Shown piece by piece: positions 772 through 61,811 of a stretch of DNA of 64,000 nucleotides. This DNA is from a virus, in the IMG/VR virus record IMGVR_UViG_3300045988_130750, positions 64,001-128,000 of that record; one strand, written 5' to 3'. A program made the position numbers and the translations under genes. The notes under the pieces were generated by a model that was given only the letters and a program-made list of their open reading frames with translations, searched no databases and was not told where the DNA came from. How positions within the stretch are numbered: the first letter of the stretch is position 1; each line of letters opens with the position of its first letter.

Positions 772-906
772 ATGAACAAATTTTTAATTGAAATTGAATG
801 TGACGGAGATATTAATGTCGAAGGAATGGAAAATCTATTAAAAAATATGATGGATAATCAAGTTAATTGTACAGAAACGACAATTGTTGTGAGAGAAGAT
901 GAGTAA
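772..906 (+). CDS. hypothetical small protein (44 aa)
   Basis: Below the track cutoff. ATG 772 is preceded by TTGGAAAGGATGG. The ORF fills an otherwise empty gap. Confidence 0.45.
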   Translation: MNKFLIEIECDGDINVEGMENLLKNMMDNQVNCTETTIVVREDE

Positions 907-938
907 ATGTGTATTTCATTAGAATTGGAGGAACAGAT

Positions 939-1118
939 ATGGAATTTTCAGAAATGGATGAAGTAAGAGTAAGAACTTATGGTGGTGCTATTGGCACTAT
1001 TGAAAGGGTTATATATGAAATGGTAGATAGTAAGGAAACAGATAATGTATATTGCTATGAAATGGAAATCAATGGTAAACATGGAGTCATAGTCTATCCA
1101 GACGAGATTGACGAATAA
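939..1118 (+). CDS. hypothetical protein
   Basis: Start refined to ATG 939, 8 nt after ATTGGAGGA. A junction TTTC box lies at 914-920. Confidence 0.6.
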   Translation: MEFSEMDEVRVRTYGGAIGTIERVIYEMVDSKETDNVYCYEMEINGKHGVIVYPDEIDE

Positions 1119-1170
1119 AGCTGATTGTAGAATAGTAAATGCGTGTTTCATTAGAAGGTAGGTGAAGGAT

Positions 1171-1383
1171 ATGAAAGTAACAAAGAAATTAGAAGAATTG
1201 TTAGAAAAAGCATCTAAAAAACTTGATGCTGCACAAGATGCTAGAAGCGAAGTTATGGACTATCTTGAGGAGCATTATGGGATAGATACAAGAGAGGAAT
1301 ATGAAGAAATAGAAGATCAATGTACATGGTGCTATGGAATTGATAAAGATAGTGTAAGAAAATTGATTGAAAAGGCAAAATAA
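1171..1383 (+). CDS. hypothetical acidic protein
   Basis: ATG 1171 follows GGTAGGTGAAGG. TTTC box at 1146-1152. Confidence 0.6.
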   Translation: MKVTKKLEELLEKASKKLDAAQDARSEVMDYLEEHYGIDTREEYEEIEDQCTWCYGIDKDSVRKLIEKAK

Positions 1384-1416
1384 ATTCGCATTTCTTTAGA
1401 AGATTGGAGAAATAAA

Positions 1417-1593
1417 ATGAAATTTAATAAAGACGACAGAGTATTTCATAGAGGATTAAAAAGATATGGAATATATGTAGATGATGATTGGGCTTCCGAT
1501 GATAGTTGTTATGTTAAGTTTGACAACGAGGATAATCCGGATGATGTATTGTGTGTATCGAAAAACTGGTTAGATAACGTAAAGGAGAAATAA
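1417..1593 (+). CDS. hypothetical small protein, paralog of 10295..10525
   Basis: 58-aa ORF not in the track. SD is ATTGGAGA. MKFNKDDRVFHRGLKRYGIYV..W resembles MKFKVGDRVFHKNLRLFGTFV..W at 10295. Confidence 0.6.
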   Translation: MKFNKDDRVFHRGLKRYGIYVDDDWASDDSCYVKFDNEDNPDDVLCVSKNWLDNVKEK

Positions 1594-1595
1594 AA

Positions 1596-1793
1596 ATGGG
1601 ATTAGAAGAGATTTTAAAAGAACTTGGAGCAGACATTCCCTTTGATGAGAAAGGAGATTTAACTTCAAATGGAGCTGACGCATATGAGAAGTTAATCAAT
1701 GTAGTAACAGGATTAAATAGTATTGGTGCTATTCAAGAGAAACCAGATGACATTGAAAGTTATTGTGATGAAATAGTGAGATTGGGATTCTAA
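1596..1793 (+). CDS. hypothetical protein
   Basis: ATG follows AAGGAGAAATAAAA and lies 2 nt after the upstream stop. Confidence 0.6.
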   Translation: MGLEEILKELGADIPFDEKGDLTSNGADAYEKLINVVTGLNSIGAIQEKPDDIESYCDEIVRLGF

Positions 1794-1834
1794 TGAAACT
1801 AAGATTTCTTGGTATGATTGGAGGCAAAAAATCA

Positions 1835-2047
1835 ATGGAAAATAAACCTTATGCAATAGCAGTACGAATTTATGAATTAAATGGAACAACGATGGCAGAT
1901 ATTAAAACTTCTCCCTGTGATGGTTTGAGAACAGAAACGATAACATGGACAAAACCAGACGAAAGAGAAAGATTTTATTATAATGGTTATACGTTGATTT
2001 ATGATGAACGAATCAAAAATATAAAACCTTTTGAAGAAATTAAATAA
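1835..2047 (+). CDS. hypothetical protein
   Basis: Start refined to ATG 1835 after ATTGGAGGC. The track start at 1793 would read through the TTTC box at 1805-1812. Confidence 0.55.
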   Translation: MENKPYAIAVRIYELNGTTMADIKTSPCDGLRTETITWTKPDERERFYYNGYTLIYDERIKNIKPFEEIK

Positions 2048-2060
2048 GGAGTGAAGCGAA

Positions 2061-2276
2061 ATGACAAACATTGAAAAGTCAAAAGAGGACGCACGGAACT
2101 TAAATGAACTCACGGATCATTTGATTAAATTACTTGAATCGGATGACAAGCGGTTCTCATTTGAATTTTGTGCAGGTGGCACAATGGAGATTTACGACAA
2201 AGAAAAAGAAATTGGGTATGCAGTTCATATTGTACCGATTGAATATGATGAGAACGGAAAAGCAATAAATTTATAA
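2061..2276 (+). CDS. hypothetical protein
   Basis: ATG follows AAGGAGTGAAGCGAA. Confidence 0.6.
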   Translation: MTNIEKSKEDARNLNELTDHLIKLLESDDKRFSFEFCAGGTMEIYDKEKEIGYAVHIVPIEYDENGKAINL

Positions 2277-4033: not shown

Positions 4034-4077
4034 CCAAATGAAAGAGTACTTTCATAGAAAGGTAAAAGGTGATAATT

Positions 4078-4329: not shown

Positions 4330-4367
4330 AGAATTAGCAATTTCATTTTAAGATTGGAGGAATGAGC

Positions 4368-4838: not shown

Positions 4839-4840
4839 GT

Positions 4841-5481: not shown

Positions 5482-5679
5482 ATGAAGTATAAAATAGGCG
5501 ATAAATTTATGATAGAAATGAGAACTGGTTTTCTACTAAATAGTTTCGTTAGAAGAGAAATTGAAATTACAAAAATAATTGGTAATCTCCTATGGTTCAA
5601 ATATGAGTTACCTAATGGTGGTTACAGGGAAATGTTTGGTTATGAAAAAGATTTAGATGGAATGATCATAACTGAATAA
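5482..5679 (+). CDS. hypothetical protein
   Basis: ATG 5482 follows TGGAGTGATTGTTT. Confidence 0.55.
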   Translation: MKYKIGDKFMIEMRTGFLLNSFVRREIEITKIIGNLLWFKYELPNGGYREMFGYEKDLDGMIITE

Positions 5680-5715
5680 ACAAGAGTTTCAAGGCAAGAT
5701 TGGAGGAAAATAAAT

Positions 5716-7546: not shown

Positions 7547-7576
7547 GAGGACTGAAGATATATCAGTCCTCTTTTT
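7547..7576. terminator. bidirectional intrinsic terminator
   Basis: GAGGACTGA-N7-TCAGTCCTC, flanked by an A-run upstream and a T-run downstream. The 3' arm contains the stop codon of the minus-strand repressor gene. Confidence 0.65.
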
Positions 7577-7808
7577 GATGTAATTTTGGATCATCTGTGC
7601 GTCCAACAAGATAGTCAATAGAAACATCAAAGTAATCAGCGAGTTTAATCAGCATATCAAGACTTGGTTTTTTGTTTCCATTCTCAAAATTACCAATAGT
7701 TCCTCTTGTAGATTCAATTTCTTTACCAAGCTGCTCCATAGTAAGACCATTAGAAGTTCTCAATTCCTTTAGTCTTTCAGAAAAACTTGGAAAAAAGAAG
7801 AAAAACAT
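7563..7808 (-). CDS. XRE-family HTH repressor (CI-like)
   Basis: LKELRTSNGLTMEQLGKEIESTRGTIGNFENGNKKPSLDMLIKLADYF is a classic XRE HTH. Start set to ATG 7808, preceded on the minus strand by AGAGGTGA. Confidence 0.8.
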   Translation of the reverse strand: MFFFFFPSFSERLKELRTSNGLTMEQLGKEIESTRGTIGNFENGNKKPSLDMLIKLADYFDVSIDYLVGRTDDPKLHQKED

Positions 7809-7819
7809 AACATCACCTC

Positions 7820-7871
7820 TTGACATAAGTATTCAAATAGAATACAATAATGATGTATTCAAACGGAATAC
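7820..7871 (+). promoter_or_regulatory. sigma-A type promoter with two palindromic operators
   Basis: TTGACA (7820-7825), 17-nt spacer, TACAAT (7843-7848). Operators are GTATTCAAATAGAATAC (7829-7845) and GTATTCAAACGGAATAC (7855-7871). Confidence 0.7.
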
Positions 7872-7892
7872 ATAACTGGAAAGGAGATAATT

Positions 7893-8108
7893 ATGAACCA
7901 GCTAAAACAAATCCGTTTGGAAAATAAATGGACTCAACAATATGTGGCAGATAAAATTAGTATTACAAAATCTGCATATTCAAACATTGAGAATCAGAAT
8001 AGAAGTCCATCACTAAAAGTAGCCATTCAATTACAAAATTTGTTTGGTCTATCAATTGAAAAACTGTTGGAAAATAAGAATAGCAACCCTACACCGACAA
8101 AAGTTTAG
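7893..8108 (+). CDS. XRE-family HTH protein (Cro-like)
   Basis: IRLENKWTQQYVADKISITKSAYSNIENQNRSPSLKVAIQLQNLF is an XRE HTH. Divergent from 7563..7808. SD is AAAGGAGATAATT. Confidence 0.8.
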   Translation: MNQLKQIRLENKWTQQYVADKISITKSAYSNIENQNRSPSLKVAIQLQNLFGLSIEKLLENKNSNPTPTKV

Positions 8109-8346: not shown

Positions 8347-9099
8347 ATGAAAGAAGTATTAGAAACAAGAAATGAAATTGAAATTTTTAACAATGAAAAT
8401 TTCGGACAGATTAGAACTATTGTGATTGATGGAGAACCTTGGTTTATTGGAAAAGATATTGCGATTGCACTTGGTTACTCCGATCCAAAAGATGCATTGA
8501 AAAAGCATGTTTATACTGAAGATAAAGAGGTATTTCAAAAGGGGCGTTTTGCCACCTTAGAAAATATTGATAAATTAAGCATCCCAAATAGAGGAATGAC
8601 ATTTGTTAATGAGTCTGGTTTATATTCGTTGATTTTTGGAAGCAAATTAGATTCAGCAAAGCAGTTTAAAAGATGGGTAACATCAGAGGTTCTTCCATCA
8701 ATCCGAAAGACAGGTGGTTATGTTGCAACTCAATCTAATAAGGTAGAAACAATGCTTGAAGATATGGGATGTAATATGAAAGTTGTGTATGCTCAGATTA
8801 ACAATATGGAAAATATGTTAGGTGAGCAGACAGAAAAGTTAAATCAGGTTGTAGATAATATGACATTAACTACAAGACAGCAGCAGAGAATTTATAAAGC
8901 TGCAAAGGACAGAATTAACAATTTACTCGGTGGAGCACATTCTAAAGAATATAAAGCAAATTCGAAAAGCTATTTTATTAATCTTTGGAATGGCTTGAAG
9001 AGTAAATTTGGATGTGGCAGTTCATACAAGGATCTGAATCCTATTTACTTTGATGATGCAATGAGATTTATTCAGAATTGGATTTACGAAGAGAACTAA
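8347..9099 (+). CDS. BRO-N domain antirepressor-like protein
   Basis: FGQIRTIVIDGEPWFIGKDIAIALGYSDPKDALKKHV matches the BRO-N / phage antirepressor N-terminal signature. Confidence 0.75.
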   Translation: MKEVLETRNEIEIFNNENFGQIRTIVIDGEPWFIGKDIAIALGYSDPKDALKKHVYTEDKEVFQKGRFATLENIDKLSIPNRGMTFVNESGLYSLIFGSKLDSAKQFKRWVTSEVLPSIRKTGGYVATQSNKVETMLEDMGCNMKVVYAQINNMENMLGEQTEKLNQVVDNMTLTTRQQQRIYKAAKDRINNLLGGAHSKEYKANSKSYFINLWNGLKSKFGCGSSYKDLNPIYFDDAMRFIQNWIYEEN

Positions 9100-9634: not shown

Positions 9635-9668
9635 GAAATCTAAGTTTCATGCCAAGAAGGGAGTAATA

Positions 9669-9881: not shown

Positions 9882-9945
9882 TAGTAGGTAGACAATATAA
9901 TAATTATGTTGGAAGTGAAATTTAACTTTCAAAGGTGATGATTTT

Positions 9946-10260: not shown

Positions 10261-10294
10261 CTGGAAATTCGACTTTCAAAGGAAGGTGATATAA

Positions 10295-10741: not shown

Positions 10742-10822
10742 TAAATGACGATTTCAAATGGATTTTTTGGATTGATTAGTCATATAATATATTAGAAATT
10801 ATTGAAAAATGGAGGTAATTGT

Positions 10823-11152
10823 ATGTTTACACTTAATAAAGGAATTAATTATGTAACAATGAAATGGTATATGGAGAATTTAAAAGAGAAAATTGATATC
10901 CGTGATGTCAATATTGCAAACTATAATACAACTGAATTAGAAAATGTTATCAAAGATATTATATCTAATATTAGTATTGGTAATATTGCTGTCACAGAAA
11001 AATATGTGGTGGTAGAAGGAAGAAAACGTATTTATGCCATTAATGCTTTTATTGATGGTAAAATCAAATTCTCAAATAAATATTATACAGAGTTATCAAA
11101 AGAAGAATTTGATATTTTCAATAATTATGAATTAGGAATTTTTGTTGGATAA
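10823..11152 (+). CDS. small protein with a DUF262/ParB-like core motif
   Basis: ATG 10823 follows ATGGAGGTAATTGT. IGNIAVTEKYVVVEGRKRIYAINAF resembles the DUF262 ...y.iiDGqQRl... segment. Confidence 0.4.
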   Translation: MFTLNKGINYVTMKWYMENLKEKIDIRDVNIANYNTTELENVIKDIISNISIGNIAVTEKYVVVEGRKRIYAINAFIDGKIKFSNKYYTELSKEEFDIFNNYELGIFVG

Positions 11153-11208
11153 TTCAAAAGAAAAATTGCTTTCTTGCTGAAAGCAAATCAAATACAGAAA
11201 TAAGTATT

Positions 11209-11236
11209 AGAAGCGAAAATTAATCGCTTCTTTTTT
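11209..11236 (+). terminator. intrinsic terminator
   Basis: AGAAGCGA-N7-TCGCTTCT followed by TTTTT. A second hairpin, TTGCTTTC-N5-GAAAGCAA, lies just upstream at 11167-11187. Confidence 0.7.
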
Positions 11237-11262
11237 AATACAGAAAAATGAGGTGACGAAAA

Positions 11263-11550
11263 ATGAATATGGGAAATCCAAAAAGAGTGTCAAGATTTAT
11301 ATGTTGTAAACATTTAGGAGAGAATTATATAGGATCTGGCATACAGAGATATGGACATCAGAGAGAAAAATTTCATTGCAAGGATCTATTTTGTTTGCAA
11401 TGTAACGAAATTACAAAAAATTTAGAAATTCGATGGTGTGATGATTATTTGGAAGTATATGAAATGGCTCAACAAATTAGATCATGCTATTATACAGATA
11501 AAATGGAGAATAATAATGATAGAAAGGTGGTTGATGAACATGTGTTATAA
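11263..11550 (+). CDS. Cys/His-rich hypothetical protein
   Basis: ATG follows AATGAGGTGACGAAAA. Several C/H clusters (CCKH...HCKDLFCLQC). Confidence 0.55.
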   Translation: MNMGNPKRVSRFICCKHLGENYIGSGIQRYGHQREKFHCKDLFCLQCNEITKNLEIRWCDDYLEVYEMAQQIRSCYYTDKMENNNDRKVVDEHVL

Positions 11551-12553
11551 AGCAGAAGTTCAAAAGCGAAACGAAGAGAAGTTAAACAAAATGTTGAGAA
11601 ACGAGAATGTTCCTGATTTTATTCAAGATTATTTTTTATCTATTTCGAGCAGAGCAGCAAGAATAAATTATTGGACAACTATTCGTAACACATTGAATTG
11701 GTTAATTGAAAAGAAATATATTGAATGTAAATCAATATCTGATATTTCACCTGAAATATTAGATAAGGTAACGGATTCAAAAATTATTAGATATTTAGAT
11801 TATTTAAAGGAGACTGGAATTAAACTTAGTACATTAGTCACAAAGAAAAACCAGTTGAGTAGTTTCTGGCAGTGGATGAAAGATCGTCATTATTGCAAGG
11901 ACAATATAATACAGTTAATCAAATCAAATGAATATAAAGCAGTAAAGACAAATCGTATGAAAATGCAGAAAATGCCTTTGTATGAAGATATCCAGGAGAT
12001 GATTGAAAAAATAAACCATAAACCAGATGAGTTCATTAGAATTAGAAATATGTGTGTCCTTAGAGTTTTGCGTGGTACTGGTTTAAGAGAGTCAGAGTTA
12101 GCAAATCTTGATTTAGGGGATATATATTTAGATGAAAAATTTATAGATGCATATCATGTAAGACCGTATTCGCTTGTAACAAGTAAAGGAACTTATGATT
12201 ATTCAGATGAAGCTAAAGATATTGTTTATTTAACAAAAGATGCAATTTCAGCTTTAACCGAATGGATTGAATACAGAAATACACTTGATTTTATTATTGA
12301 CAAAGATGCATTATTTCTTAATAAAAATGGAAAGCGTATGAATGAAGATAACATCAAAGCAATGTTTAGAATCTACAGTGGTGGGAAATTAACACCGCAC
12401 ATGATGAGACACGAATATACAACAGTTCTTCAAAGAGAATCAAACGATCCTACATTTGTTAGAGAACAAGGCAGATGGAAGTCAAACGCAATGATGAATA
12501 ATGTGTATGATTCAGGAGCTAGTAGATCCGCAAGTGTTTTGGAGAATATGTAA
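11516..12553 (+). CDS. int: tyrosine recombinase / phage integrase
   Basis: Start refined to ATG 11516 after GGAGAATAATA. LRGTGLRESELANL (box I Arg), HMMRHEY (H-x-x-R) and GRWKS..MMNNVY (catalytic Tyr region). Confidence 0.85.
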   Translation: MIERWLMNMCYKAEVQKRNEEKLNKMLRNENVPDFIQDYFLSISSRAARINYWTTIRNTLNWLIEKKYIECKSISDISPEILDKVTDSKIIRYLDYLKETGIKLSTLVTKKNQLSSFWQWMKDRHYCKDNIIQLIKSNEYKAVKTNRMKMQKMPLYEDIQEMIEKINHKPDEFIRIRNMCVLRVLRGTGLRESELANLDLGDIYLDEKFIDAYHVRPYSLVTSKGTYDYSDEAKDIVYLTKDAISALTEWIEYRNTLDFIIDKDALFLNKNGKRMNEDNIKAMFRIYSGGKLTPHMMRHEYTTVLQRESNDPTFVREQGRWKSNAMMNNVYDSGASRSASVLENM

Positions 12554-12559
12554 ACGACA

Positions 12560-12733
12560 CTATTTATTGGTGTCGTTGTCAAACTTAGATACTTCATTTG
12601 TTACAAGATTACGAATCCAACCAGAAAGAGATCTACCATCTGCCGTTGCAATTTTTGCAGCTCTTTCTTTTACATCTTTAGAAAGAACTACCATAACCCT
12701 TGTGTTTTCATCTTTGATTTTTCCTTGTGGCAT
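12560..12733 (-). CDS. ribbon-helix-helix (CopG/Arc-type) DNA-binding protein
   Basis: 57-aa minus-strand ORF not in the track: MPQGKIKDENTRVMVVLSKDVKERAAKIATADGRSLSGWIRNLV... SD is AAAGGAGA, 8 nt upstream. It replaces the antisense track ORF 12501..12764. Confidence 0.7.
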   Translation of the reverse strand: MPQGKIKDENTRVMVVLSKDVKERAAKIATADGRSLSGWIRNLVTNEVSKFDNDTNK

Positions 12734-12763
12734 AGTAAGTATCTCCTTTATTAATATAAGTTG

Positions 12764-12792
12764 ATTATAAGTTGTTGCAAACTATATGTCAA
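12764..12792 (-). promoter_or_regulatory. consensus sigma-A promoter for the RHH gene
   Basis: Read on the minus strand: TTGACA (12792-12787), 17-nt spacer, TATAAT (12769-12764). Confidence 0.7.
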
Positions 12793-12819
12793 TTATTTTT
12801 AAAAAATGACATAAACCTA

Positions 12820-12848
12820 TTGACAAGTTGATGACAACTTGCTATAAT
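12820..12848 (+). promoter_or_regulatory. consensus sigma-A promoter for the MazF-like operon, with a palindrome in the spacer
   Basis: TTGACA (12820-12825), 17-nt spacer, TATAAT (12843-12848). The inverted repeat CAAGTTG-ATGA-CAACTTG overlaps the -35 hexamer and spacer. Confidence 0.75.
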
Positions 12849-12904
12849 GCAAACTATCAAAGGTAATCCAAAGTACATAAACACAAAAGAGAGGAGGAGT
12901 ACAT

Positions 12905-13285
12905 ATGGATTTACAGAGATACGACATAATAAAGGCAAAAATTAATTATGAAGGAAATTCAGTACAAACGAATGAAAGACCTTATGTAATAGTAAGTAAT
13001 CCATTGGGTACAAAATATGCTCCGATTATAACAGTGATGCCTTTGACAAGTAAGATTAAAAAGACAAACATGCCTTGTCATGGATGTATTCAAGCAAATG
13101 AAAATAATGGATTAACATTATATTCTATGGCATTAGGTGAGCAGATCACAACAATCTCAAAAGATGAAGTGATCTCAAAAATTGGAACTATTACTGATGA
13201 TAAAAATAAAAGAATGGTAGATAAAGTATGTTTTAATTCTTTATTTTTTGGAACAGACTACAAGCTTGAGGAGGTAATGGCATAA
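12905..13285 (+). CDS. PemK/MazF-family endoribonuclease toxin
   Basis: RYDIIKAKINYEG...ERPYVIVSNPLG...IITVMPLTSKIKK..MPCHGCI follows the PemK/MazF pattern (RP.v.vS ... P.TS). Strong SD, GAGAGGAGGAG. Confidence 0.75.
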   Translation: MDLQRYDIIKAKINYEGNSVQTNERPYVIVSNPLGTKYAPIITVMPLTSKIKKTNMPCHGCIQANENNGLTLYSMALGEQITTISKDEVISKIGTITDDKNKRMVDKVCFNSLFFGTDYKLEEVMA

Positions 13286-13551
13286 TGTATGTAGATAAGG
13301 AAGTAGCAAAAAGGATAATTGATGAGGCTCCTGGTAAAATATGGATAGATTCATTTAATGGTATTACCTTTATTCATACAAGACCAAGACAGATAACTGT
13401 TGACGAAGGAAAGAGAATAATAAATAAGGCAAACACAATTGATTATCAAGATAATGATTTCTTTGGATTGCTTTCGCTGGATGGAGTGCAGGAATTTATT
13501 GTGCATAATATTAAGTTTCCTCAACATTCCAATGATATTTGCAAGTCCTGA
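13285..13551 (+). CDS. hypothetical protein translationally coupled to the MazF-like gene
   Basis: The ATG overlaps the toxin stop (ATAATG). SD is GAGGAGGTAA. No family recognised. Confidence 0.6.
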   Translation: MYVDKEVAKRIIDEAPGKIWIDSFNGITFIHTRPRQITVDEGKRIINKANTIDYQDNDFFGLLSLDGVQEFIVHNIKFPQHSNDICKS

Positions 13552-13834
13552 AAATTGGACAGTCAATATAATATAATGCAAACAAAGAATGAAAAGAACG
13601 CTTTAATTGAAAAACTTAACGCAACAAAAAAGTTAGTAAACAGAAAAATTTGTTGCATTAACTTTTGCAGAAGAAAATGCGAGCCGCTATTTTGGCATGT
13701 AAACAATTAAGCATTTTTCAACAGTTTTAATCGAATTATATCACATAAAATACCAAAAAAACAGAAAATACAATGTTGAATGTATTAGAAAACCTTTTGA
13801 TTTTGCACTGAGTTTTTCATTTAAGGAATAAAAA

Positions 13835-13887
13835 GAACGTATGTACGAAAAAAAGTAATTGACAAATACGAACATATGTTCTATATT
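13835..13887 (+). promoter_or_regulatory. sigma-A promoter overlapped by two LexA (Cheo) boxes
   Basis: GAACGTATGTAC (13835-13846); TTGACA (13859-13864), 17-nt spacer, TATATT (13882-13887). The spacer contains CGAACATATGTTC (13869-13881), a perfect GAAC-N4-GTTC. Confidence 0.7.
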
Positions 13888-14095
13888 ATTCTTATAAAAA
13901 ATAAATATTGCAGTCTAACAAAATACAAACGGTATTGGCGTACCTCTTTTGATAGACTGCAAAGTAACACATATAGCAGAATTAAATTCCGCTTGATATT
14001 ATTGTACATAGATTTTATTAGAAAGTCAAGTTTTTAAACAATCAAGCATTTCTGCTAAATATTTCATATTTTACAATTTTAATTAAGAAAATTAT

Positions 14096-14167
14096 AGGAC
14101 TATCGCCAAGCGGTAAGGCACAGGACTTTGACTCCTGCATTCGCTGGTTCGAATCCAGCTAGTCCTG
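14096..14167 (+). tRNA. tRNA-Gln (anticodon TTG)
   Basis: Hand-folded cloverleaf: acceptor AGGACTA/TAGTCCT, D arm GCC..GGC, anticodon stem CAGGA/TCCTG with loop CTTTGAC, T arm GCTGG-TTCGAAT-CCAGC, discriminator G. Confidence 0.85.
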
Positions 14168-14213
14168 TTATATAATTTTACACTAAATCAAAAAAGAAAG
14201 AGGAGTGATAATA

Positions 14214-14822
14214 TTGGCACAATATGTTATTACAGATGGTTCTCGTTGGATTATGAAAGATAAAAATGGGAAATTTGTTCCCACATCTTGCGAACCGCTG
14301 GCTGATGTATTTGGTAATAAGGAAGTTAATTCGGTGTATCAAAACAATTTGCCGAAGGCATTGAAATCGGTCTTTCATATCGAGAAGATTGATAAGCCTC
14401 CAAAGTTGGTAAAGCAAATTACACATGCGGAAGTACAAGAGAATACAGAAACGGTGTCGGTTGCAGAAAATATCCAATATTGGGTAGATAAGGTATCTGG
14501 TTTGAATGGACTTGCTGCTGAAGCATTACATAGAAAAGAAGAATTGATTAATCAGTTAAGTGAAGTTGATAAGGAACTTTGCGATATTAATCATTACATA
14601 GAATTTTGCAACTTAAATGCAGCTCAGGGTTATAAAGCATACAAAATGATCAAGGATCGGAGAATAAAGAGACGAAGTATTAAAAATGAGTTGGATGTTC
14701 TTAGTATTATTCTTGGAAAGAAAATATCTGAATCTGTCAGTGATGAATTACAAAAGATGATTAACGGATTAGATGGAAGAAAATATGAGCCAAGAGTAAT
14801 GAATGAGTTATTCGATTTCTAA
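14214..14822 (+). CDS. hypothetical protein with C-terminal coiled coil
   Basis: TTG 14214 lies 8 nt after AGAGGAG; the track start GTG 14205 sits inside the SD. First CDS downstream of the LexA-box promoter. Confidence 0.6.
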   Translation: MAQYVITDGSRWIMKDKNGKFVPTSCEPLADVFGNKEVNSVYQNNLPKALKSVFHIEKIDKPPKLVKQITHAEVQENTETVSVAENIQYWVDKVSGLNGLAAEALHRKEELINQLSEVDKELCDINHYIEFCNLNAAQGYKAYKMIKDRRIKRRSIKNELDVLSIILGKKISESVSDELQKMINGLDGRKYEPRVMNELFDF

Positions 14823-14836
14823 ATGAGGTGATAAAA

Positions 14837-15010
14837 ATGATTTGTAGAGATTGTCGTATTCCAATGCAAAATATAATGTCATTTTCATCGGACAAGCATG
14901 AAAAGTTTTGCAGGTGTCCGAAGTGTTTTGGAGAAACCAAGCACACAAAAATCAAAGATGATGACTTAGATTTTGTAGAAGTATTACATAGGGAAATGAA
15001 CAGGAAATAA
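14837..15010 (+). CDS. small zinc-ribbon protein
   Basis: ATG 14837 follows ATGAGGTGATAAAA. Contains CRDC...CRCPKC. Confidence 0.6.
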   Translation: MICRDCRIPMQNIMSFSSDKHEKFCRCPKCFGETKHTKIKDDDLDFVEVLHREMNRK

Positions 15011-15028
15011 TGTAAGGTGGTGTATCAA

Positions 15029-19182: not shown

Positions 19183-19229
19183 AACAAGAAATGTGGTTTT
19201 CAAGTGAAGTGAAGTTTGGAGGTGAAATC

Positions 19230-19592: not shown

Positions 19593-19635
19593 AAACGAGA
19601 AAAGAAATTTCTCTTTCAAATGGAGGTAAAATGTA

Positions 19636-20162: not shown

Positions 20163-20207
20163 CAGGAAGAAATTCACGTTTCATAGGAAATTTTGGAGGT
20201 TAAGACA

Positions 20208-38508: not shown

Positions 38509-38630
38509 TCAATAAAAGTCGCAGTAAATTTCGATTTCATGTTAACAGAAAGAGAGAATACATAAGTGTAACAAGGCGATAAGCCTAAAATATAAAGTTT
38601 AAAAATCAAAGTTAAAAAGGAGAGAACATT

Positions 38631-39574: not shown

Positions 39575-39670
39575 TAAAGTTTAAAGTTATAAGGCTCAAA
39601 TAACAACGCTCAGAAGTTCAAAGTTTAAATTATGAGTCAAAGTTAAAAGAGTAAATAGTAAAGTTGTAAA
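39575..39670. repeat. cluster of AAGTT-core direct repeats (iteron-like)
   Basis: GTAAAGTTTAAAGTTAT, GAAGTTCAAAGTTTAAAT, TCAAAGTTAAAAG and GTAAAGTTGTAAAG lie within 96 bp. Extra copies occur at 38593-38618, plus an inverted copy at 39314-39323. Confidence 0.6.
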
Positions 39671-40219: not shown

Positions 40220-40723
40220 ATGGAAGTAAGAGTTAGATTATCGGATGCACATAATACAATTAAAGAATATGAAAACTTAGGATACAGATTTATCGGATCA
40301 AGACAAGATATTAAATATGTAAACCTTTTCTTTGAAGAAGTCCATATACCAAAAGAGAATAATGTAACAGATATAAAATTTAACATCGGAGATTTCGTAG
40401 AAAATAGAGATGGAAGAATTGGTTACATTTCAGATATATGTCATTGTGATGAATGTAAAAAGCGTGGGTTCTTTGAGCCAACAATTCAGTATTCAGATGG
40501 TACAAACGATTACATATCAAATTATTCTGTAAAATACGTTTCTAAAGACTATAAACAGATTGGTACTCAGAAGTTCGATAATGACTATTATGAGAAAGAA
40601 ATTGAAAGCTTGAAACATCAATTAAAGATGGAGAAAAGTAAAAGTGCTTATTGGAAGATGAAATCCAATGGAGAAGAACCTGTTTTAATGGGTACAAGAG
40701 AAGGAATGGTTCACATTCTTTGA
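40220..40723 (+). CDS. hypothetical protein
   Basis: ATG follows TTGAGGAGGTGAGAAT. TTTC box at 40190-40198. Confidence 0.65.
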   Translation: MEVRVRLSDAHNTIKEYENLGYRFIGSRQDIKYVNLFFEEVHIPKENNVTDIKFNIGDFVENRDGRIGYISDICHCDECKKRGFFEPTIQYSDGTNDYISNYSVKYVSKDYKQIGTQKFDNDYYEKEIESLKHQLKMEKSKSAYWKMKSNGEEPVLMGTREGMVHIL

Positions 40724-53205: not shown

Positions 53206-53266
53206 AAGCCAATGAAAGACGGATTTCATGTCCGTCATTTATATGAAATGAAAGAGAGGTATAAAT

Positions 53267-53824
53267 ATGGTTTATGGAGTATTTGGTGGTTGTTATAGTG
53301 ACTGGTATATAGTCGGATATTTCACCAATCGTCAAGATGCGGATAAGTATTGCTGTTTATGTGGGGATGGTGACTATTATGTAAAACCATTAAAAGATTT
53401 AACTGATGAAAAAGATTTATCAAAAGTATCTTTAAAATATTGTCATGAAGTTTTATTTGATTGTAAAGATGATGAAAACAGATGGGTTATGAGAGAAGAA
53501 CCTGAAAGGTACAATTGCTATATTGATAAGGATTTAAGATGTAATAGCGTAAGGCAAGGAACACTATGTAGAAATAATTGGGTGTGCTTTAGTATAAATA
53601 TTGATCACGATGACAGAAAATTGGCAGAAAAAATTGCTCAAGACTATTTAGCTGAACTTCGTTCTTATGGAGATGGGAAAATTTATGAAAAGAATATTAA
53701 ATTGATGAATGATAAATTCGCAGCACCATTCAAGGAAAAAGAGAGAATAAGAAAAGAAGAAGAAATTAGACAAAAAGAACTTGCAGAATTAGAAAGATTA
53801 AAGGCTAAATACGAAACAAAATAA
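53267..53824 (+). CDS. hypothetical protein
   Basis: ATG follows AAGAGAGGTATAAAT. Preceded by the hairpin GACGGA-N7-TCCGTC (53218-53236). Confidence 0.6.
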   Translation: MVYGVFGGCYSDWYIVGYFTNRQDADKYCCLCGDGDYYVKPLKDLTDEKDLSKVSLKYCHEVLFDCKDDENRWVMREEPERYNCYIDKDLRCNSVRQGTLCRNNWVCFSINIDHDDRKLAEKIAQDYLAELRSYGDGKIYEKNIKLMNDKFAAPFKEKERIRKEEEIRQKELAELERLKAKYETK

Positions 53825-53859
53825 ACGACAGTTTCTTGTGAAAAGAAAGGAGATAAAAA

Positions 53860-55418: not shown

Positions 55419-55460
55419 GTTAAGAAGAAACAGTTTCTTGCGAAGATTAGAGGTGATTAA

Positions 55461-55786: not shown

Positions 55787-56398
55787 ATGAAAACAGTTTT
55801 TAACTGGTTCGGTGATGATTGGAAGAGAGTAAAAAATCATTGTAGAACCACGGATAATAAAGATTTTACAGAGAATGAAGCAACAGACACTTTTAAAAAG
55901 AAGTTGCTTATATCTGAACATTCGCCAATTAGATTACTTGAATTTGATTGGTCGTGGAAAAGTATTTATTACTGGTTGAGTACGGAGTGGTCGAGACATA
56001 AATTTGAAAAATTTATTAGCTCACAAAGAGATGATAGATTGGTTGATGATACTCCACGAGGTAAGAAACCACAAGATGCATTGGTTAATTTTGATGGCTA
56101 TGCTAATATGCAAAACCTTATTGATAGTTGGAGAAAAAGATTGTGTGGCAATGCTACACCAGAAGTAGTTGAATTGGCAGAAGACTTCAAAATTGAATTA
56201 CATAAGACACATCCTTATGAATCAGATGTGTTAGTTCCTCATTGTATTTATCGTGCAGGTTGCCCTGAGTTTGGTTGTTGTGGAAAGATTACTGATTTTA
56301 TTAAATGGGCAAAGGATAATAATAAGGAAATTAATTGGCTTAATATTCAAAATAGATATGATTTATACAATGAATGGTTTTATGAAGTACACAAGTAA
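55787..56398 (+). CDS. divergent ThyX-like protein (tentative)
   Basis: SEHSPIRLLEFDWSW...WSRHKFEKFISSQRDD loosely parallels the ThyX pattern H.S.lEh..f.f...RHR..S....S.R. The Arg and Ser of the RHR..S motif are not conserved. Confidence 0.35.
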   Translation: MKTVFNWFGDDWKRVKNHCRTTDNKDFTENEATDTFKKKLLISEHSPIRLLEFDWSWKSIYYWLSTEWSRHKFEKFISSQRDDRLVDDTPRGKKPQDALVNFDGYANMQNLIDSWRKRLCGNATPEVVELAEDFKIELHKTHPYESDVLVPHCIYRAGCPEFGCCGKITDFIKWAKDNNKEINWLNIQNRYDLYNEWFYEVHK

Positions 56399-56416
56399 AT
56401 GTTCATTTCATAGGGG

Positions 56417-56638
56417 GTGATTAATATTAGAAATCCAAATAGATTATATGATTTTTACAACGAAGTAACCCGATTACACATGACATATATGCCTGATTGG
56501 AGAGCAGGTCAGTTTTGGATGAACTTTTTAGGTTGGGTACAGAATGAAAAGAAACGTGATCCGTTCTTCCCAGAAGAAAAAGAAATGCTTACATATTTAA
56601 AAGAATATTGTGGAGAAAAGGAGGATGTAGATGAATAA
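56417..56638 (+). CDS. hypothetical protein
   Basis: GTG abuts TAGGGGG, so the start is uncertain. Overlaps ligA by 8 nt. Confidence 0.55.
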   Translation: MINIRNPNRLYDFYNEVTRLHMTYMPDWRAGQFWMNFLGWVQNEKKRDPFFPEEKEMLTYLKEYCGEKEDVDE

Positions 56639-59724: not shown

Positions 59725-60172
59725 TGTTAGTGTTTGGGGGTTCGACCATGCTTTAAGAATGGTTAAGAACAATAACCATACATATAAAAATGATAGCGGT
59801 ATTTGTAAAGGTGGAGCAGATGGGATTGGATGCAATAATTGTTTCTATAAAGGAGCATGTAATCACACATATGACAGTAGTTTTCAATTAGGAACATTGG
59901 ATATGTCATATATAAAAAATGATATTAAACATAGTGTTGAGTTTGGAACAAAGAAAAGTATTTTAAACTATGTATATATTTCTTTTGATGAAAGCATCAA
60001 GGATAAAGTATCTACTAAGGTTTATACATACAATCAAGTATTGCAATATATAGAATGTAATCCAAAGTCAGAAAGAACTATATTTTTTAAGACATTACCA
60101 TATGTAGAAGTATTATATGATTTTTATATTGGATATAAGTCATATTATAAAAATTGTCCAAAAAATTATTAG
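59705..60172 (+). CDS. hypothetical Cys-rich protein
   Basis: ORF overlapping the upstream gene by 20 nt. N-terminal MKTFRNVSVWG resembles MKTVFNWFG of 55787. Confidence 0.5.
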   Translation: MMKTFRNVSVWGFDHALRMVKNNNHTYKNDSGICKGGADGIGCNNCFYKGACNHTYDSSFQLGTLDMSYIKNDIKHSVEFGTKKSILNYVYISFDESIKDKVSTKVYTYNQVLQYIECNPKSERTIFFKTLPYVEVLYDFYIGYKSYYKNCPKNY

Positions 60173-60207
60173 TGACACAAAATAACCATTGAAAGGAGAA
60201 AACAGAA

Positions 60208-60756
60208 ATGTTAGCAATAATGGGAAAAGCTGCGTCAGGTAAAGATACAGTAAAAAATATTTTAGTAAAAGAACATGGGTTCAGTTCTATTATTACATAT
60301 ACAAATAGACCAATCAGACCTGGTGAAATACAAGATATTACATACCATTATATCACAGAAGATGAATTTTTAAAAAAAATAAAGGAAGGATTCTTCGCAG
60401 AATGGAAAAAATATAATGTTAATGGTGAGACATGGTACTATGGTTCAGCCAAGGAAGATTTTAAAAATGCAGATAAAAATACCGTAATTATACTTACGCC
60501 AGAAGGAATACGAGATATTAGAGAGAATGATATTGATATAACTGTATACTATTTGTATTCGGACTTAAAAACAATACAAAAACGTTTATCTGAACGCAAT
60601 GATATACATGATAAAGCAGAAAACAGAATTAAAAGAGACACAAAAGATTTTGAATTTGCTGAAATATTGGCAGATAAAATCATATCTAATAATTTAAATG
60701 ATAATCTTGATGATGTGATAAACACTATAATTTATATGTACGACAAGGAGGAATAG
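60208..60756 (+). CDS. guanylate-kinase-like nucleotide kinase
   Basis: MGKAASGKDT (P-loop) and TYTNRPIRPGEIQDITYHYITEDEF match the Gmk pattern TTR..R.gE..G.dY.F. Confidence 0.7.
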   Translation: MLAIMGKAASGKDTVKNILVKEHGFSSIITYTNRPIRPGEIQDITYHYITEDEFLKKIKEGFFAEWKKYNVNGETWYYGSAKEDFKNADKNTVIILTPEGIRDIRENDIDITVYYLYSDLKTIQKRLSERNDIHDKAENRIKRDTKDFEFAEILADKIISNNLNDNLDDVINTIIYMYDKEE

Positions 60757-60757
60757 A

Positions 60758-61177
60758 ATGGAAAGATTTCAAATTTATACTGCTGGTGCAACAAAAAATG
60801 TATCAAAAGATGAATCGCATAATTGGAGAAAAGCTACAAGAGATTGTTTGGAAAAGGTAGACGAAAAATATAATGTTAATGTATTTATTCCAGATGAATC
60901 TTTTAATTATGACACTTTATTACCAAAAACAGAAAGACAATGTATGAATTACTTTTTATATAAAGTAAGTGAAAGTAATTTATTACTCGTAAACTTAAAT
61001 AATTCAAGTTTATCAGTTGGAACAGGCATGGAAGTGCAAAAAGCGATTGATACCGGAATACCAATTATCGGATTTGGTACAGAAAATGTCTATCCATGGA
61101 TAAATGAACATTGTGATATTGTCTTTGAAGATAAATATGATGCCCTGTTATATATTAAAGAATATTATTTATTGTAG
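60758..61177 (+). CDS. nucleoside 2-deoxyribosyltransferase-family protein
   Basis: FQIYTAGA near the N-terminus. LLLVNLNNSSLSVGTGMEVQKAIDTGIPIIGF matches the GT..E.G.A...g.P family core. Confidence 0.6.
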   Translation: MERFQIYTAGATKNVSKDESHNWRKATRDCLEKVDEKYNVNVFIPDESFNYDTLLPKTERQCMNYFLYKVSESNLLLVNLNNSSLSVGTGMEVQKAIDTGIPIIGFGTENVYPWINEHCDIVFEDKYDALLYIKEYYLL

Positions 61178-61196
61178 TGAGAGGTGATTTGATTCA

Positions 61197-61397
61197 GTGA
61201 TTTATAGAACATTAACATGCCATGGACTTGCTAAGGAATTACTATCAAAACAAGATAGTTTTCTCACAGTAACAATAAATGATAGAGAATATAGTATTAG
61301 AAACACTAAAAAAGTAAAAACACATGCTAATTTAGATGATAGTGTTACACATACAACATTAGTATGTGATGAATTAAATGGAAATATCGTGAGGTAA
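61197..61397 (+). CDS. hypothetical protein
   Basis: GTG lies 9 nt after GAGAGGTGA. Confidence 0.5.
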   Translation: MIYRTLTCHGLAKELLSKQDSFLTVTINDREYSIRNTKKVKTHANLDDSVTHTTLVCDELNGNIVR

Positions 61398-61405
61398 TAT
61401 AAGAG

Positions 61406-61549
61406 ATGCTAAGTAAAGAAGAAAGAAAAATGATTATTGAACTAATATGCAACGAACAAACACACATGATTATCAAAGATCATACCAAATACGACTCTGA
61501 TAAATATAAGAAACTAGAGGTATTGAAAATAAAAATTAAGGATATGTAG
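61406..61549 (+). CDS. hypothetical small protein (47 aa)
   Basis: Not in the track. ATG follows GTGAGGTAATATAAGAG. Confidence 0.45.
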   Translation: MLSKEERKMIIELICNEQTHMIIKDHTKYDSDKYKKLEVLKIKIKDM

Positions 61550-61557
61550 GTGAATAT

Positions 61558-61719
61558 ATGTCAGATATCACAATGTGTAGTAGTGAACATTGTCCTATGA
61601 AAGATAAGTGTTATAGAGCATCAGCAAAGCCAAACAAGTTTGCACAAAGTTGGTCAAATTTTGAGTATACTTGTAACGATAATGGCGGATTTAATAAATA
61701 TATTTCACAAAAACATTAA
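61558..61719 (+). CDS. small Cys-rich protein (53 aa)
   Basis: Not in the track. ATG follows GTAGGTGAATAT. Contains MCSSEHCPMKDKCYR. Confidence 0.5.
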   Translation: MSDITMCSSEHCPMKDKCYRASAKPNKFAQSWSNFEYTCNDNGGFNKYISQKH

Positions 61720-61811
61720 AATAAGTCAAGAAATACATCATAAATTGATTTATTTTATTTTGAAGGGACAATAAAAGGGTTGATTTCTTGTGGAATCGAG
61801 AAAGGAGATAA

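Follow-up and report, generated by a model that had tools for sequence, protein, structure and literature searches.

Sequence comparison suggests that short palindromic boxes between genes are sites where related gut phages exchange gene cassettes and invert one DNA switch

Three kinds of described system bear on a motif repeated between phage genes: XerS, a recombinase which acts alone on a near-symmetric site (PMC5357621); the many-copy operators known in temperate phages (PMC9283540, PMC10516654); and PeSL-mediated shuffling, a precedent for recombination at linkers (PMC2839356, PMC4122927). We compare with them a box, [GT]AAA-N6-TTTC, found in a 64,000-nucleotide stretch (the window) of a 148.6-kb temperate Lachnospiraceae phage.

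The recurrence of this intergenic motif was confirmed. On the plus strand, the intergenic DNA of the window (12,350 nt, 30% GC) contains 30 copies, compared to 1.07 ± 0.96 (maximum 4) in 500 shuffles; AT-rich shuffled sequence thus fails to reproduce its frequency. The two strands of the whole window contain 65 matches, compared to 18.7 ± 5.0 (maximum 32) in dinucleotide shuffles, and the coding DNA (51 kb) only 5. The fixed spacing of the original prediction also held: among the spacings tested 6 alone is enriched, with 30 intergenic copies at N6 and 0–3 at the others between N2 and N10 (for GAAA-Nk-TTTC, 22 at k = 6 and 0–8 at other k). A canonical box is present at 24 of the 53 junctions of 25–150 nt. 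All 30 TTTC coordinates listed originally carry TTTC in the context claimed, with the following corrections: those at 4341, 28727 and 33189 have variant left arms (GAAT, CAAA and AAAA); 31161 is a right half-site alone, not a full box; 55435 belongs to a different dyad (AAGAAAC-A-GTTTCTT); and 61784 has a spacer of 7 nt rather than 6. Canonical copies absent from that list have TTTC at 4050, 10752, 11170, 19198, 24842 and 53224, and the match at 17223, over the TATAAT of a tRNA promoter, is probably due to chance.

904–917, plus: box, spacer TGTGTA; TAAA left arm is the stop codon region; same box in loci L289–L291
1136–1149, plus: box, spacer TGCGTG; same address in L292 with different flanking genes
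1381–1394, plus: box, spacer TTCGCA; L289, L290 and L291 identical up to the core, unrelated beyond
1795–1808, plus: box, spacer CTAAGA; right edge of the variable slot starting at 1381
4040–4053, plus: box, spacer GAGTAC
4331–4344, plus: variant box GAAT-TAGCAA-TTTC; canonical at the same address in L290–L292 (GAAA/TAAA-TAGCAA-TTTC)
5677–5690, plus: box, spacer CAAGAG
9635–9648, plus: box, spacer TCTAAG
9917–9930, plus: box, spacer TTTAAC; TATAAT hexamer at 9896, ~15 nt upstream
10264–10277, plus: box, spacer TTCGAC
10742–10755, plus: box, spacer TGACGA; left edge of the most variable slot
11160–11173, plus: box, spacer AATTGC; in most relatives the final box ahead of the XerS-like recombinase gene
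19188–19201, plus: box, spacer TGTGGT
19604–19617, plus: box, spacer TTTCTC
20169–20182, plus: box, spacer TTCACG; relatives have CGCACA ahead of the same nucleotidyltransferase gene
25912–25925, plus: box, spacer GTGGAA; one base off the family address GCGGAA
27460–27473, plus: box, spacer CATAGA; family core joining 11 left-flank and 22 right-flank clusters
28717–28730, plus: variant box CAAA-CCGAAT-TTTC
29076–29089, plus: box, spacer GAAATC
30003–30016, plus: box, spacer CTCGCA (ATGAAA...TTTCAT)
31109–31122, plus: box, spacer CCTGTC (TAACAAGAAA...TTTCTTTGG)
31520–31533, plus: box, spacer TTTTGG; then come a 57-nt non-coding insert (TTTCTT-N18-TACAAT) and the next box
31577–31590, plus: box, spacer ACCACG
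33179–33192, plus: variant box AAAA-GAAGCA-TTTC, ahead of an RNA ligase gene
35752–35765, plus: box, spacer TTCAGG (TAACAGTAAA...TTTCTTGGTTA)
37139–37152, plus: box, spacer CCAATC
37900–37913, plus: box, spacer TATCGG
38525–38538, plus: box, spacer TTTCGA
40180–40193, plus: box, spacer TCACTG; left edge of the 13-kb replication module
53214–53227, plus: box, spacer GACGGA; right edge of the replication module
53822–53835, plus: box, spacer CGACAG
56396–56409, plus: box, spacer TGTTCA
61771–61787, plus: decayed box AAA-GGGTTGA-TTTC, 7-nt spacer; L166 homologue canonical (GAAA-GGTTGA-TTTC)

In full, the site spans 24 bp and forms an imperfect palindrome, in which two TTTCWTkkG half-sites, inverted arms of 9 bp each (consensus CCAAWGAAA on the left, TTTCWTTGG on the right), flank a variable 6-bp spacer. 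The base profile is the same in both half-sites out to position 9: position 6 is T in 82% of copies of each arm, and position 9 is G in 70% and 37% (background ~10%). No covariation was found between symmetric box positions outside the fixed core; at −12/+5 and −15/+8 identity is conserved rather than pairing, and the −6/−1 pair forms 51 Watson-Crick pairs compared to 61 expected. Symmetric conservation without covariation, together with a marginal RNA hairpin, indicates a double-stranded DNA site read by a symmetric protein. The GC content of the spacers is 44–47%, compared to 31% for the genome, and 25 spacers include 10 CpG, which is unexpected if the centre of an operator were uncontacted and neutral; the difference from spacer to spacer within the window is not above chance. 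In most copies the start codon lies 18–32 nt downstream of TTTC. The Shine-Dalgarno (SD) sequence had been placed 8–15 nt after TTTC; this is approximately correct, but the 414 family sites show a bimodal distribution, with one peak at +8 and another at +15 to +19 (counted from the first T), and the upstream stop codon peaks within the left arm (TAA at −10, TGA at −11, TAA at −16).

The motif recurs in related phage genomes, with 1403 boxes across 253 related gut prophage loci (4.35 Mb). Sixty spacers are each present in at least 5 loci, none was repeated within one locus in the 253-locus address analysis, and their order was violated in 0 of 2213 comparisons: each spacer behaves as the fixed address of a junction. 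The content between addresses varies from slot to slot: 15 unrelated kinds in 41 loci between TGACGA and AATTGC, 12 kinds in 29 loci between GTTCGA and ACTTCG, 7 unrelated kinds in 8 loci between TTCGCA and CTAAGA, and 1–2 kinds in the core modules. These core modules and the initial 10 kb of the same gene block are without boxes despite intergenic space. Up to TAAAttcgcaTTTC, L289, L290 and L291 do not differ; the sequence that follows is unrelated, until the next address box, GAAActaagaTTTC, is again common to all three.

Homology stops at the border of the 13-bp core. Of the pairs compared, all chosen to have matching spacers, 1187 are homologous to the left and unrelated to the right: their identity stays at ~0.9 as far as −10 and has dropped to background by +4. 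Another 638 pairs with the reverse arrangement drop in the same way on the opposite side. Since this choice of pairs makes the core identical, crossovers inside it look the same as homology-driven ones on 13 bp. The G or T at −10 goes along with the left flank. About 20 of the 110 unique ends of long perfect-identity tracts are within 20 nt of a box (by length, ~1% would be expected); those on the right fall at +4 to +15 and those on the left at −7 to −20. Most ends of recent-exchange tracts fall within genes, and box-free gene junctions also act as mosaic breakpoints.

One pair of boxes surrounds an invertible segment upstream of a cytosine methyltransferase gene, and this is the one same-spacer pair inside a genome:

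24832–24845, plus: box, spacer TATTTT; left inverted repeat
24846–24983, no strand: invertible segment, 138 bp
24984–24997, minus: inverted box (plus strand GAAAAAAATAATTC; minus strand GAAT-TATTTT-TTTC); right inverted repeat, same spacer

Twelve loci, including the window, carry the segment one way and 47 the opposite way. Between L102 and L108 the flanks are 100% identical and the 137-bp inner segments are exact reverse complements. Variant switches also have both spacers matched (TATTAT/TATTAT in L104, TAGTAT/TAGTAT in L076). The two repeats have a single mismatch, which is located in the outer arm and keeps to its outer flank in both orientations, indicating a crossover in the spacer or the inner arm. 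With one inverted same-spacer pair found, the inversion could be the work of a dedicated invertase with box-like sites.

These comparative data argue for recombination rather than a classical operator. Our leading reading, held at about even confidence, is that the boxes are core sites of a tyrosine recombinase enabling position-specific cassette exchange; the anatomy and statistics of the site, its addresses and slots, the loss of homology at the core and the inversion are observed directly, and from them we infer that the recombinase binds the arms and that exchange is enzymatic rather than homology-driven. A protein dimer would bind the two inverted arms and strands would be exchanged within the spacer. 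Since the arms are common to all boxes and the spacer is unique to each junction, boxes in one genome could not recombine with each other, and no deletion would follow. The same junction in two co-resident relatives (in co-infection, or a prophage and a superinfecting phage) would recombine, so that whole cassettes would be exchanged one slot at a time, leaving gene order unchanged and every gene intact; between the inverted same-spacer pair at 24832/24984 the DNA flips as a switch. Two features are left unexplained: boxes hug the SD despite ample space (10264, and 40180, which is 30 nt before the first start codon of the replication module with 900 nt of free non-coding DNA upstream), and 30 or more sites are maintained even if rare mixed infections are their only occasion to act.

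The likeliest enzyme, judged from its presence, intact catalytic residues and family type, is encoded in the window:

11534–12553, plus: XerS-like tyrosine recombinase, catalytic residues intact (R, K, HxxR, H/W, Y)

Among protein families this conserved recombinase matches XerS best, and relatives are encoded in at least 152 IMG/VR stretches, many on contigs already in the family; in isolate genomes it is located mid-prophage. Two recombinase types, with ~42% identity, are present in the family, yet the same box arms lie alongside both. The gene was rejected as the integrase: a separate 460-aa integrase adjoins attP, where the host genes begin in the integrated copy L374. There is no box in the attP region.

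The original prediction had also proposed an operator for a dimeric phage regulator. A dimer on the dyad agrees with the shared half-site profile without covariation, but a classical operator-binding regulator is probably not involved. We regard it as rather unlikely that the boxes are dispersed operators of a phage-encoded dimeric regulator, for example a factor for early shut-off or a second protein for immunity or silencing. Bound immediately ahead of the ribosome-binding site, such a regulator would stop or adjust the transcription of each cassette, and cassette exchange would be a by-product of box conservation. The palindromic profile favours it, as do the 4+6+4 layout, typical of helix-turn-helix operators such as those of phage 434, the position of boxes near the downstream SD even with free space, and a minor class with the right arm at the −35 position (TTTCWT-N16-18-TATATA/TACAAT). 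By contrast, the operators of the cI/cro switch (GTATTC-N5-GAATAC at 7831 and 7856) differ from the box, most boxes have no nearby promoter, and neither same-spacer inversion between identical flanks, nor the GC- and CpG-rich spacers, nor the box-free core modules and first 10 kb are explained.

It is improbable that the boxes are passive linkers with no dedicated enzyme, at which general phage recombination crosses over between unrelated cassettes. The homology breaks at boxes fit such linkers, and the same phage encodes general recombination proteins, including an ERCC4 nuclease, a RecJ-like DHH protein and the following:

42952–44091: Sak4-like AAA_24 protein

Against this, homology does not explain identical arms at all addresses, which would only invite deletions, nor the symmetric half-sites and strict 6-bp spacing; 13 identical bases offer very little length for homologous recombination; and a flip at zero flanking divergence is more easily put down to an enzyme than to recombination on 14-bp repeats.

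A promoter, or part of one, for a phage-specific sigma factor or RNA polymerase that gives each cassette its own short-leader transcript is very improbable. The position 18–32 nt ahead of start codons, with the same orientation to the genes throughout, would suit it, short promoters near start codons exist (T4 late promoters), and the box does not resemble a sigma-A promoter: as predicted, neither sigma-70-like sites (76, compared to 98.9 expected) nor intrinsic terminators (4 terminator-like sites, compared to 3.8) are in excess. For most copies it is not supported, because an entire class of sites has its SD starting just 4 nt past TTTC; moreover, the box is two-fold symmetric while promoters are not, the larger proteins of the window yielded neither a sigma factor nor an RNA polymerase, and address-like spacers and inversion are left unexplained. 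Equally little credence is due to an mRNA hairpin for processing, stability, insulation of the ribosome-binding site or termination-reinitiation coupling of neighbouring cistrons, as the location between stop codon and SD, with the stop often inside the left arm, and the arm-paired fold of 18 of 32 copies are outweighed by marginal folding (mean −2.1 kcal/mol, compared to −1.35 ± 1.5 in shuffles; no fold in 6 of 32), weak G-C arm pairing (T in place of the C-pairing G in ~1/3 of left arms) and the lack of covariation, and termination-reinitiation, though conceivable on sequence alone, explains neither the palindrome, the address-like spacers nor the inversion.

As operators, the boxes would be likened to mycobacteriophage stoperators, the conserved inverted repeats of phiC31 and the SPBRE/MrpR system of SPbeta; as linkers, to the PeSL elements of T4-like phages and the module linkers of Botstein. 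As recombinase core sites, they have the architecture of lox or dif: inverted arms around a strand-exchange spacer.

The motif claimed to recur at gene junctions, [G/T]AAA-N6-TTTC (here called the box: two arms and a central 6-bp spacer), is real, and every listed coordinate was verified. It is commoner than chance (65 copies on both strands compared to 18.7 ± 5 in shuffles) and concentrated between genes (30 intergenic copies versus 1.07 ± 0.96 in shuffles), with 5 copies in 51 kb of coding DNA; six nucleotides, the fixed spacing proposed, was the sole spacing enriched. Most entries of the original copy list hold, but a few are variants or non-boxes and six canonical copies had been missed. 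The Shine-Dalgarno sequence (SD), placed 8–15 nt downstream in the original prediction, was found either 4 nt or 11–15 nt after TTTC, and the left arm often contains the stop codon of the upstream gene, as had been noticed. Box copies lie 18–32 nt upstream of start codons, and their orientation relative to the genes is uniform in all boxes but one. Boxes are absent from the core modules and from the initial 10 kb of the same gene block, which lie upstream of the window, despite the intergenic space present in both; the gene junctions of the 10 kb that follow the window have none either.

Aligned on TTTC, the conserved positions were A at −12, T at +5 and G at +8, with C enriched at −15, Y at −6 and R at −1, and those outside the TTTC core mirror each other. 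Arm profiles were compared using one entry per distinct arm, from 87 family addresses (an address being a spacer specific to one junction): the right arm and the reverse-complemented left arm share the profile TTTC-W-T-k-k-G. The box is therefore an imperfect 24-bp palindrome, CCAAWGAAA-YNNNNR-TTTCWTTGG, laid out like a lox, dif or FRT site (9-bp arms with matching profiles, fixed spacing of 6). No covariation of the symmetric positions was found, Watson-Crick pair counts being equal to the independent-column expectation. RNA folding was weak (mean −2.1 kcal/mol versus −1.35 for shuffles; six copies unfolded), T replaces the pairing G in one third of the left arms, and no box matched Rfam. As symmetry is kept without covariation and folding is weak, the signature read from these alignments is that of a symmetric protein on double-stranded DNA and not that of an RNA hairpin. 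To our knowledge, the box is unlike the sites of host regulators (CcpA cre, CodY, LexA, Rex, sigma-54, ParB/Noc). Among the matches listed in a scan of IMG/VR with the perfect palindrome CAAWGAAA-N6-TTTCWTTG, there were scattered singles in unrelated contigs, which gave no information on the box.

Two local observations concern single junctions. A perfect dyad, AAGAAAC-A-GTTTCTT at 55426–55440, lies 20 nt before a GTG start (55461); its arms are box-like and its centre is 3 nt, and it could be either a box that has collapsed or an element of its own. In the region 56396–56430, the box at 56396 is followed by GGGGTGA and then by an in-frame ATT at 56426, which may be the non-canonical start codon of the ORF 56417–56638.

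The window has 31% GC, its plus strand holds nearly all the genes, and it forms part of a 148.6-kb metagenome contig (positions 64,001–128,000). It encodes replication and recombination proteins (DnaE-type polymerase, DnaB-like helicase, primase, RecJ-like DHH protein, Sak4-like AAA_24 protein), an ERCC4 nuclease, NAD ligase, NrdD, CCA-adding enzyme, RNA ligase, a dcm-like methyltransferase and three tRNAs. A near-identity search against named phages gave no match; the closest named relatives (phiCD211, c-st, the Lactococcus 949 group and Bacillus pW2) show a polymerase identity of only 35–39%. IMG/VR is rich in relatives (contigs of 90–217 kb), and others are prophages of Lachnospiraceae (Konateibacter massiliensis Marseille-P3773, Eubacterium segne BX4); the phage is therefore temperate. 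The RNA ligase, used as an anchor for relatives, retrieved mostly other, mosaic phages. One relative, on a 433-kb contig (locus L374), shows the phage end followed by host purine genes: PGA_cap, iPGM, purC and purF come directly after a 94-aa phage gene. In the phage form, minus-strand tail-fibre genes follow the integrase. The genes of lysogeny, integration and the island downstream of a XerS-like tyrosine recombinase ORF (the candidate recombinase) are as follows.

7563–7826, minus strand: cI-like HTH_3 gene, divergent from the cro-like gene (lysis-lysogeny switch)
7820 (TTGACA): TTGACA-17 nt-TACAAT between the cI-like and cro-like genes
7831 and 7856: two 17-bp palindromes GTATTC-N5-GAATAC, the cI/cro operators (GTATTCAAATAGAATAC and GTATTCAAACGGAATAC, respectively)
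7893–8108, plus strand: cro-like HTH_3 gene, divergent from the cI-like gene (lysis-lysogeny switch)
8347–9099: Bro-N/ORF6C antirepressor-like gene, after the cI/cro pair
10823–17125: accessory or defence-like island, with two copies of tRNA-Gln and one tRNA-Met
10823–11152: GmrSD_N fragment
11534–12553, plus strand: candidate recombinase
12600–12745, minus strand: possible small gene
12905–13285: PemK/MazF-like toxin, under a TTGACA-17-TATAAT promoter of its own that overlies a palindrome (12820–12848)
15017–17125: GmrSD-like protein
Locus L373, 15556–16938 (contig about 131.7–133.0 kb), and L374, 15564–15790: true integrase of 460 aa and attP, at the end of the plus-strand block, beyond the window

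Two further features of the window were noted. NrdD, the anaerobic ribonucleotide reductase, is split into two ORFs about 234 nt apart, the first with the ATP-cone and the N-terminal NRDD part (window 62113–63330; L373 10001–11218) and the second with the C-terminal NRDD part and Gly_radical (window from about 63565 onward; L373 11453–12445); no Rfam intron family was found at the split at the gathering threshold. A RAGATH-27 RNA (Rfam RF03100; 39298–39382; 93.4 bits versus a gathering score of 76.1) opens a 950-nt non-coding stretch (39272–40220) that separates a tail-fibre-like gene from the replication module.

Every box of the window has a different spacer. These spacers recur across 253 related loci (4.35 Mb, 1403 boxes), with no repeats within one locus and no violation of their order in 2213 comparisons. 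Spacers within one genome were not mutually repelling, their distances being no larger than chance, and spacer and flank conservation did not differ where both flanks are homologous, a weak test in a set dominated by non-box sites. Unrelated DNA often separates the same two addresses in different genomes: the slot (the DNA between two addresses) TGACGA>AATTGC has 15 unrelated contents in 41 loci, GTTCGA>ACTTCG has 12 in 29 loci, and TTCGCA>CTAAGA has 7 in 8 loci, while the replication module (TCACTG>GACGGA) and the nucleotidyltransferase/CCA module (CGCACA>TATTTT) come with two contents each. At the core AAACATAGATTTC, 11 kinds of left flank meet 22 kinds of right flank. Three loci (L289, L290 and L291) are identical until TAAAttcgcaTTTC, carry unrelated genes after it, and then share the address box GAAActaagaTTTC; in two others (L109, L110) the same cassette is found at two addresses. 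Like dif modules, these are discrete modules bounded by boxes and found in different contexts.

The joints coincide with the box core. In 1187 same-spacer pairs with homologous left and unrelated right flanks, identity is about 0.9 up to position −10 and at background by +4; in 638 mirror-image pairs it falls at −10. Some genome pairs differ on both flanks of a box, the 13-bp core alone being common. Between close relatives, long tracts of perfect identity end near boxes about 15–20 times more often than predicted by length, and do so on the side of the core where such ends are expected. Most of the tract ends are still within genes, and mosaic breakpoints also occur at box-free junctions. HSP end-points are 6-fold enriched at boxes, a statistic that is weak alone because other junctions are hot too.

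A matched inverted pair was found as a single case among the boxes; it bounds a short invertible segment (the invertible switch).

24832: canonical box GAAA-TATTTT-TTTC, with left arm TAACAAGAAA
24846–24983: inner segment of 138 bp (137 bp in L102 and L108)
24984, other strand: partner box GAAT-TATTTT-TTTC, that is, the same spacer inverted
25011–25892: dcm-like cytosine methyltransferase gene, downstream of the invertible switch

Among 60 loci (window included), 12 have the orientation of the window and 47 the opposite, with 1 unclassifiable. In L102/L108 and three further pairs, the flanks are 100% identical over 1.5 kb and 0.6 kb and the inner segments are exact reverse complements, which indicates that the segment flips quickly compared with the pace of mutation. 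Spacer matching persists in two diverged versions of the switch (TATTAT/TATTAT and TAGTAT/TAGTAT). The sole mismatch between the repeats, in the outer arm, remains with its flank, placing the crossover in the spacer or the inner arm. By genome comparison, same-spacer inverted boxes recombine to give inversion. Promoter-like elements occur within the segment, with TTGACA close to one end and TTCTTC-N17-TAAAAT close to the other, and the switch probably gives phase-variable expression of the methyltransferase. A tblastn search of all loci with an approximate Hin query found no serine invertase. CCAATC may form a second inverted pair in L084, in too few loci to judge.

The ORF at 11534–12553 encodes a 339-aa tyrosine recombinase with complete catalytic residues, whose best family match is XerS (89 bits versus a curated cut-off of 267). 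It is conserved across the family in two types of about 42% mutual identity; an apparent rarity (4 of 80 loci) was rejected as an artefact of the 10-kb flank used. Its gene lies mid-prophage, within the box array, and is distinct from the 460-aa integrase at attP, a region where no boxes were found. These features make it a candidate for the enzyme of the boxes.

Most likely, the boxes are lox/dif-like core sites. The shared arms would recruit one recombinase, and unlike spacers would stop the boxes of one genome from reacting together. Between co-resident relatives, matching spacers at the same junction would allow reciprocal exchange, the cassette between two addresses being replaced; the one matched inverted pair in cis would give an invertible switch. 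If the enzyme that flips the switch recognises the shared arms, tyrosine-recombinase chemistry predicts that exchange in trans would also take place at the other boxes. The full proposal, to which we assign somewhat less than an even chance, is that a widespread family of human-gut Lachnospiraceae prophages (130–220 kb) carries natural cassette exchange: at least 30 lox-like sites with common arms and junction-specific 6-bp spacers, together with a phage XerS-like recombinase, would let co-resident relatives reshuffle accessory cassettes slot by slot, genes and order intact, and the same enzyme and sites would build a phase-variable switch. Homology over 13 bp could in principle also produce such joints. 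The closeness of boxes to the SD is left unexplained by recombination; the number of boxes could be maintained by cassette-level selection, by analogy with integron attC sites.

The alternative that survives best is a dispersed operator (stoperator, CIR or SPBRE type), which is compatible with recombination and not exclusive of it. The symmetric profile and the near-SD position fit such an operator, but the lysis-lysogeny switch (7820–7875) has GTATTC-N5-GAATAC twice and no box, boxes mostly lack promoters, and neither the GC/CpG-rich spacers nor the inversion suits operator function. Passive homology linkers of the PeSL type leave common symmetric arms and fast flipping unaccounted for, and PeSLs themselves were rejected for lack of promoter enrichment and a mean hairpin of −2.1 kcal/mol. 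A promoter is disfavoured, as sigma-70-like promoters are not enriched (76 found versus 98.9 expected) and their offset from the boxes is inconsistent; a sigma-A arrangement, TTTCWT-N16-18-TAnnnT, occurs in a minor class only, and no sigma factor or RNA polymerase gene was found among the larger window proteins. A structured RNA element is likewise disfavoured on covariation, folding energy and Rfam, and an intrinsic terminator was rejected, with 4 terminator-like sites versus 3.8 expected in 24–42 kb and none at a box.

Two other intergenic motifs were observed. The first, (AC)AGAGAATAWAWA, recurs at 17128, 24762, 25885, 29062, 29321, 31137, 33218, 38554, 39276, 40089, 40161, 41232, 41507, 52590 and 58610, not immediately before start codons, in places 17–29 nt downstream of a box TTTC and elsewhere 24–37 nt upstream; it resembles the common SD-plus-spacer string GGAGAATAA and could be part of a promoter. 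The second, a 12–16 bp palindrome, ACTATATATAGT (or ATACYATATATRGTAT), is carried by relatives (L163 16597, L166 15068, L168 6693, and upstream of the CATAGA and CGCACA boxes in L083–L162) and was not found in the window. In some loci it comes 16 nt after TTTCAT, in others about 25 nt before a box; boxes thus flank a probable TATATA −10 element.

Phage genomes are mosaic, and the swapping of modules at gene borders without gene damage is largely inferred, the proposed routes being rare illegitimate events that selection then filters, or exchange at linkers with short homology. Botstein's theory of phage evolution reportedly predicted 'linkers' between modules, of which the box system, if the proposal is true, would be an enzymatic version. 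The joints are visible here as a defined protein-binding shape and a junction code that is conserved while both neighbour genes change, and at one place recombination of this site is demonstrable. If enzymatic, this would add to integrons and Acinetobacter dif modules a second natural system of module shuffling, the first in phage and in gut Firmicutes, and a natural counterpart of heterospecific-lox cassette exchange. The boxes delimit accessory cassettes, probably host-takeover and defence-related, in a very common group of gut prophages, and could supply orthogonal recombination sites.

A lox site has inverted arms and a short asymmetric spacer, and recombination requires matching spacers; a cassette between two different spacers is exchanged without deletion, while inverted matching sites give inversion. 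Cre/lox with heterospecific spacers, known as recombinase-mediated cassette exchange, is an engineering method, and the box system would work in the same way, with 9-bp arms and a 6-bp spacer instead of 13 and 8. Natural phage P1 has one lox site, and we know of no description of a natural array of at least 30 heterospecific sites.

Integron attC sites (57–141 bp) recombine as folded single strands and conserve structure rather than sequence, and integron cassettes enter at attI only, without fixed position. The box array shares with integrons the promoterless cassettes in one orientation, the sites abutting the next gene start and the high turnover of content. An attC identity was rejected, as the box is 24 bp long, sequence-conserved without covariation and weakly folding; moreover, boxes are position-specific, with no single entry site. 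The invertible switch resembles invertible promoters and shufflons of gut bacteria in its short segment, 14-bp inverted repeats, both orientations in otherwise identical genomes and location upstream of a DNA methyltransferase gene, but its repeats belong to a family of at least 30 copies, the others pointing one way and bounding cassettes.

PeSLs of T4-like phages are composite early-promoter and terminator stem-loops exchanged by homologous recombination (PMC2839356, PMC4122927). Like them, boxes are short conserved intergenic repeats that border small variable genes in hyperplastic regions and mark exchange points between unrelated sequences; unlike them, they lack a promoter, form only a marginal hairpin, and combine the symmetric profile of a protein site with spacers specific to each junction. 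The stoperators of cluster A mycobacteriophages are asymmetric, 13 bp long, monomer-bound and match the early-promoter operator (PMC9283540), and the SPBRE of SPbeta occurs in about 10 promoter regions, where MrpR has a tyrosine-recombinase fold with its catalytic residues lost (PMC10516654). Both are like the boxes in that a temperate phage repeats one short site tens of times in its narrow intergenic gaps, but boxes are symmetric, unlike the switch operators and mostly promoterless, and the candidate recombinase, unlike MrpR, is catalytically intact. XerS/difSL of streptococci and lactococci combines a single recombinase with a near-symmetric A/T-rich site (PMC2965235, PMC5357621). The difSL arms TTTCCGAAAA and TTTTCTTGAAA (PMC5357621) share TTTCTTG with the box half-site TTTCWTTGG, a sequence likeness offered as a lead only; difSL differs in that it occurs once on the chromosome, has a longer central region and serves to resolve dimers together with FtsK.

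The closest known system is that of the dif modules of Acinetobacter plasmids, bounded by Xer (pdif) sites with 6-bp spacers and rearranged between sites of identical spacer, a system described as unique to Acinetobacter (PMC13141974). In both, many core sites with 6-bp spacers per replicon bound modules found in varied contexts (PMC13141974, PMC12907356). A pdif-type site was nevertheless rejected for the boxes: pdif has distinct arms for host XerC and XerD and neighbours that alternate in orientation, whereas the box arms are symmetric, which implies one protein species, and all boxes but one point the same way. The boxes further differ in having junction-specific spacers in fixed order across about 250 loci, and in belonging to a 150-kb temperate phage of gut Firmicutes that encodes its own candidate recombinase.
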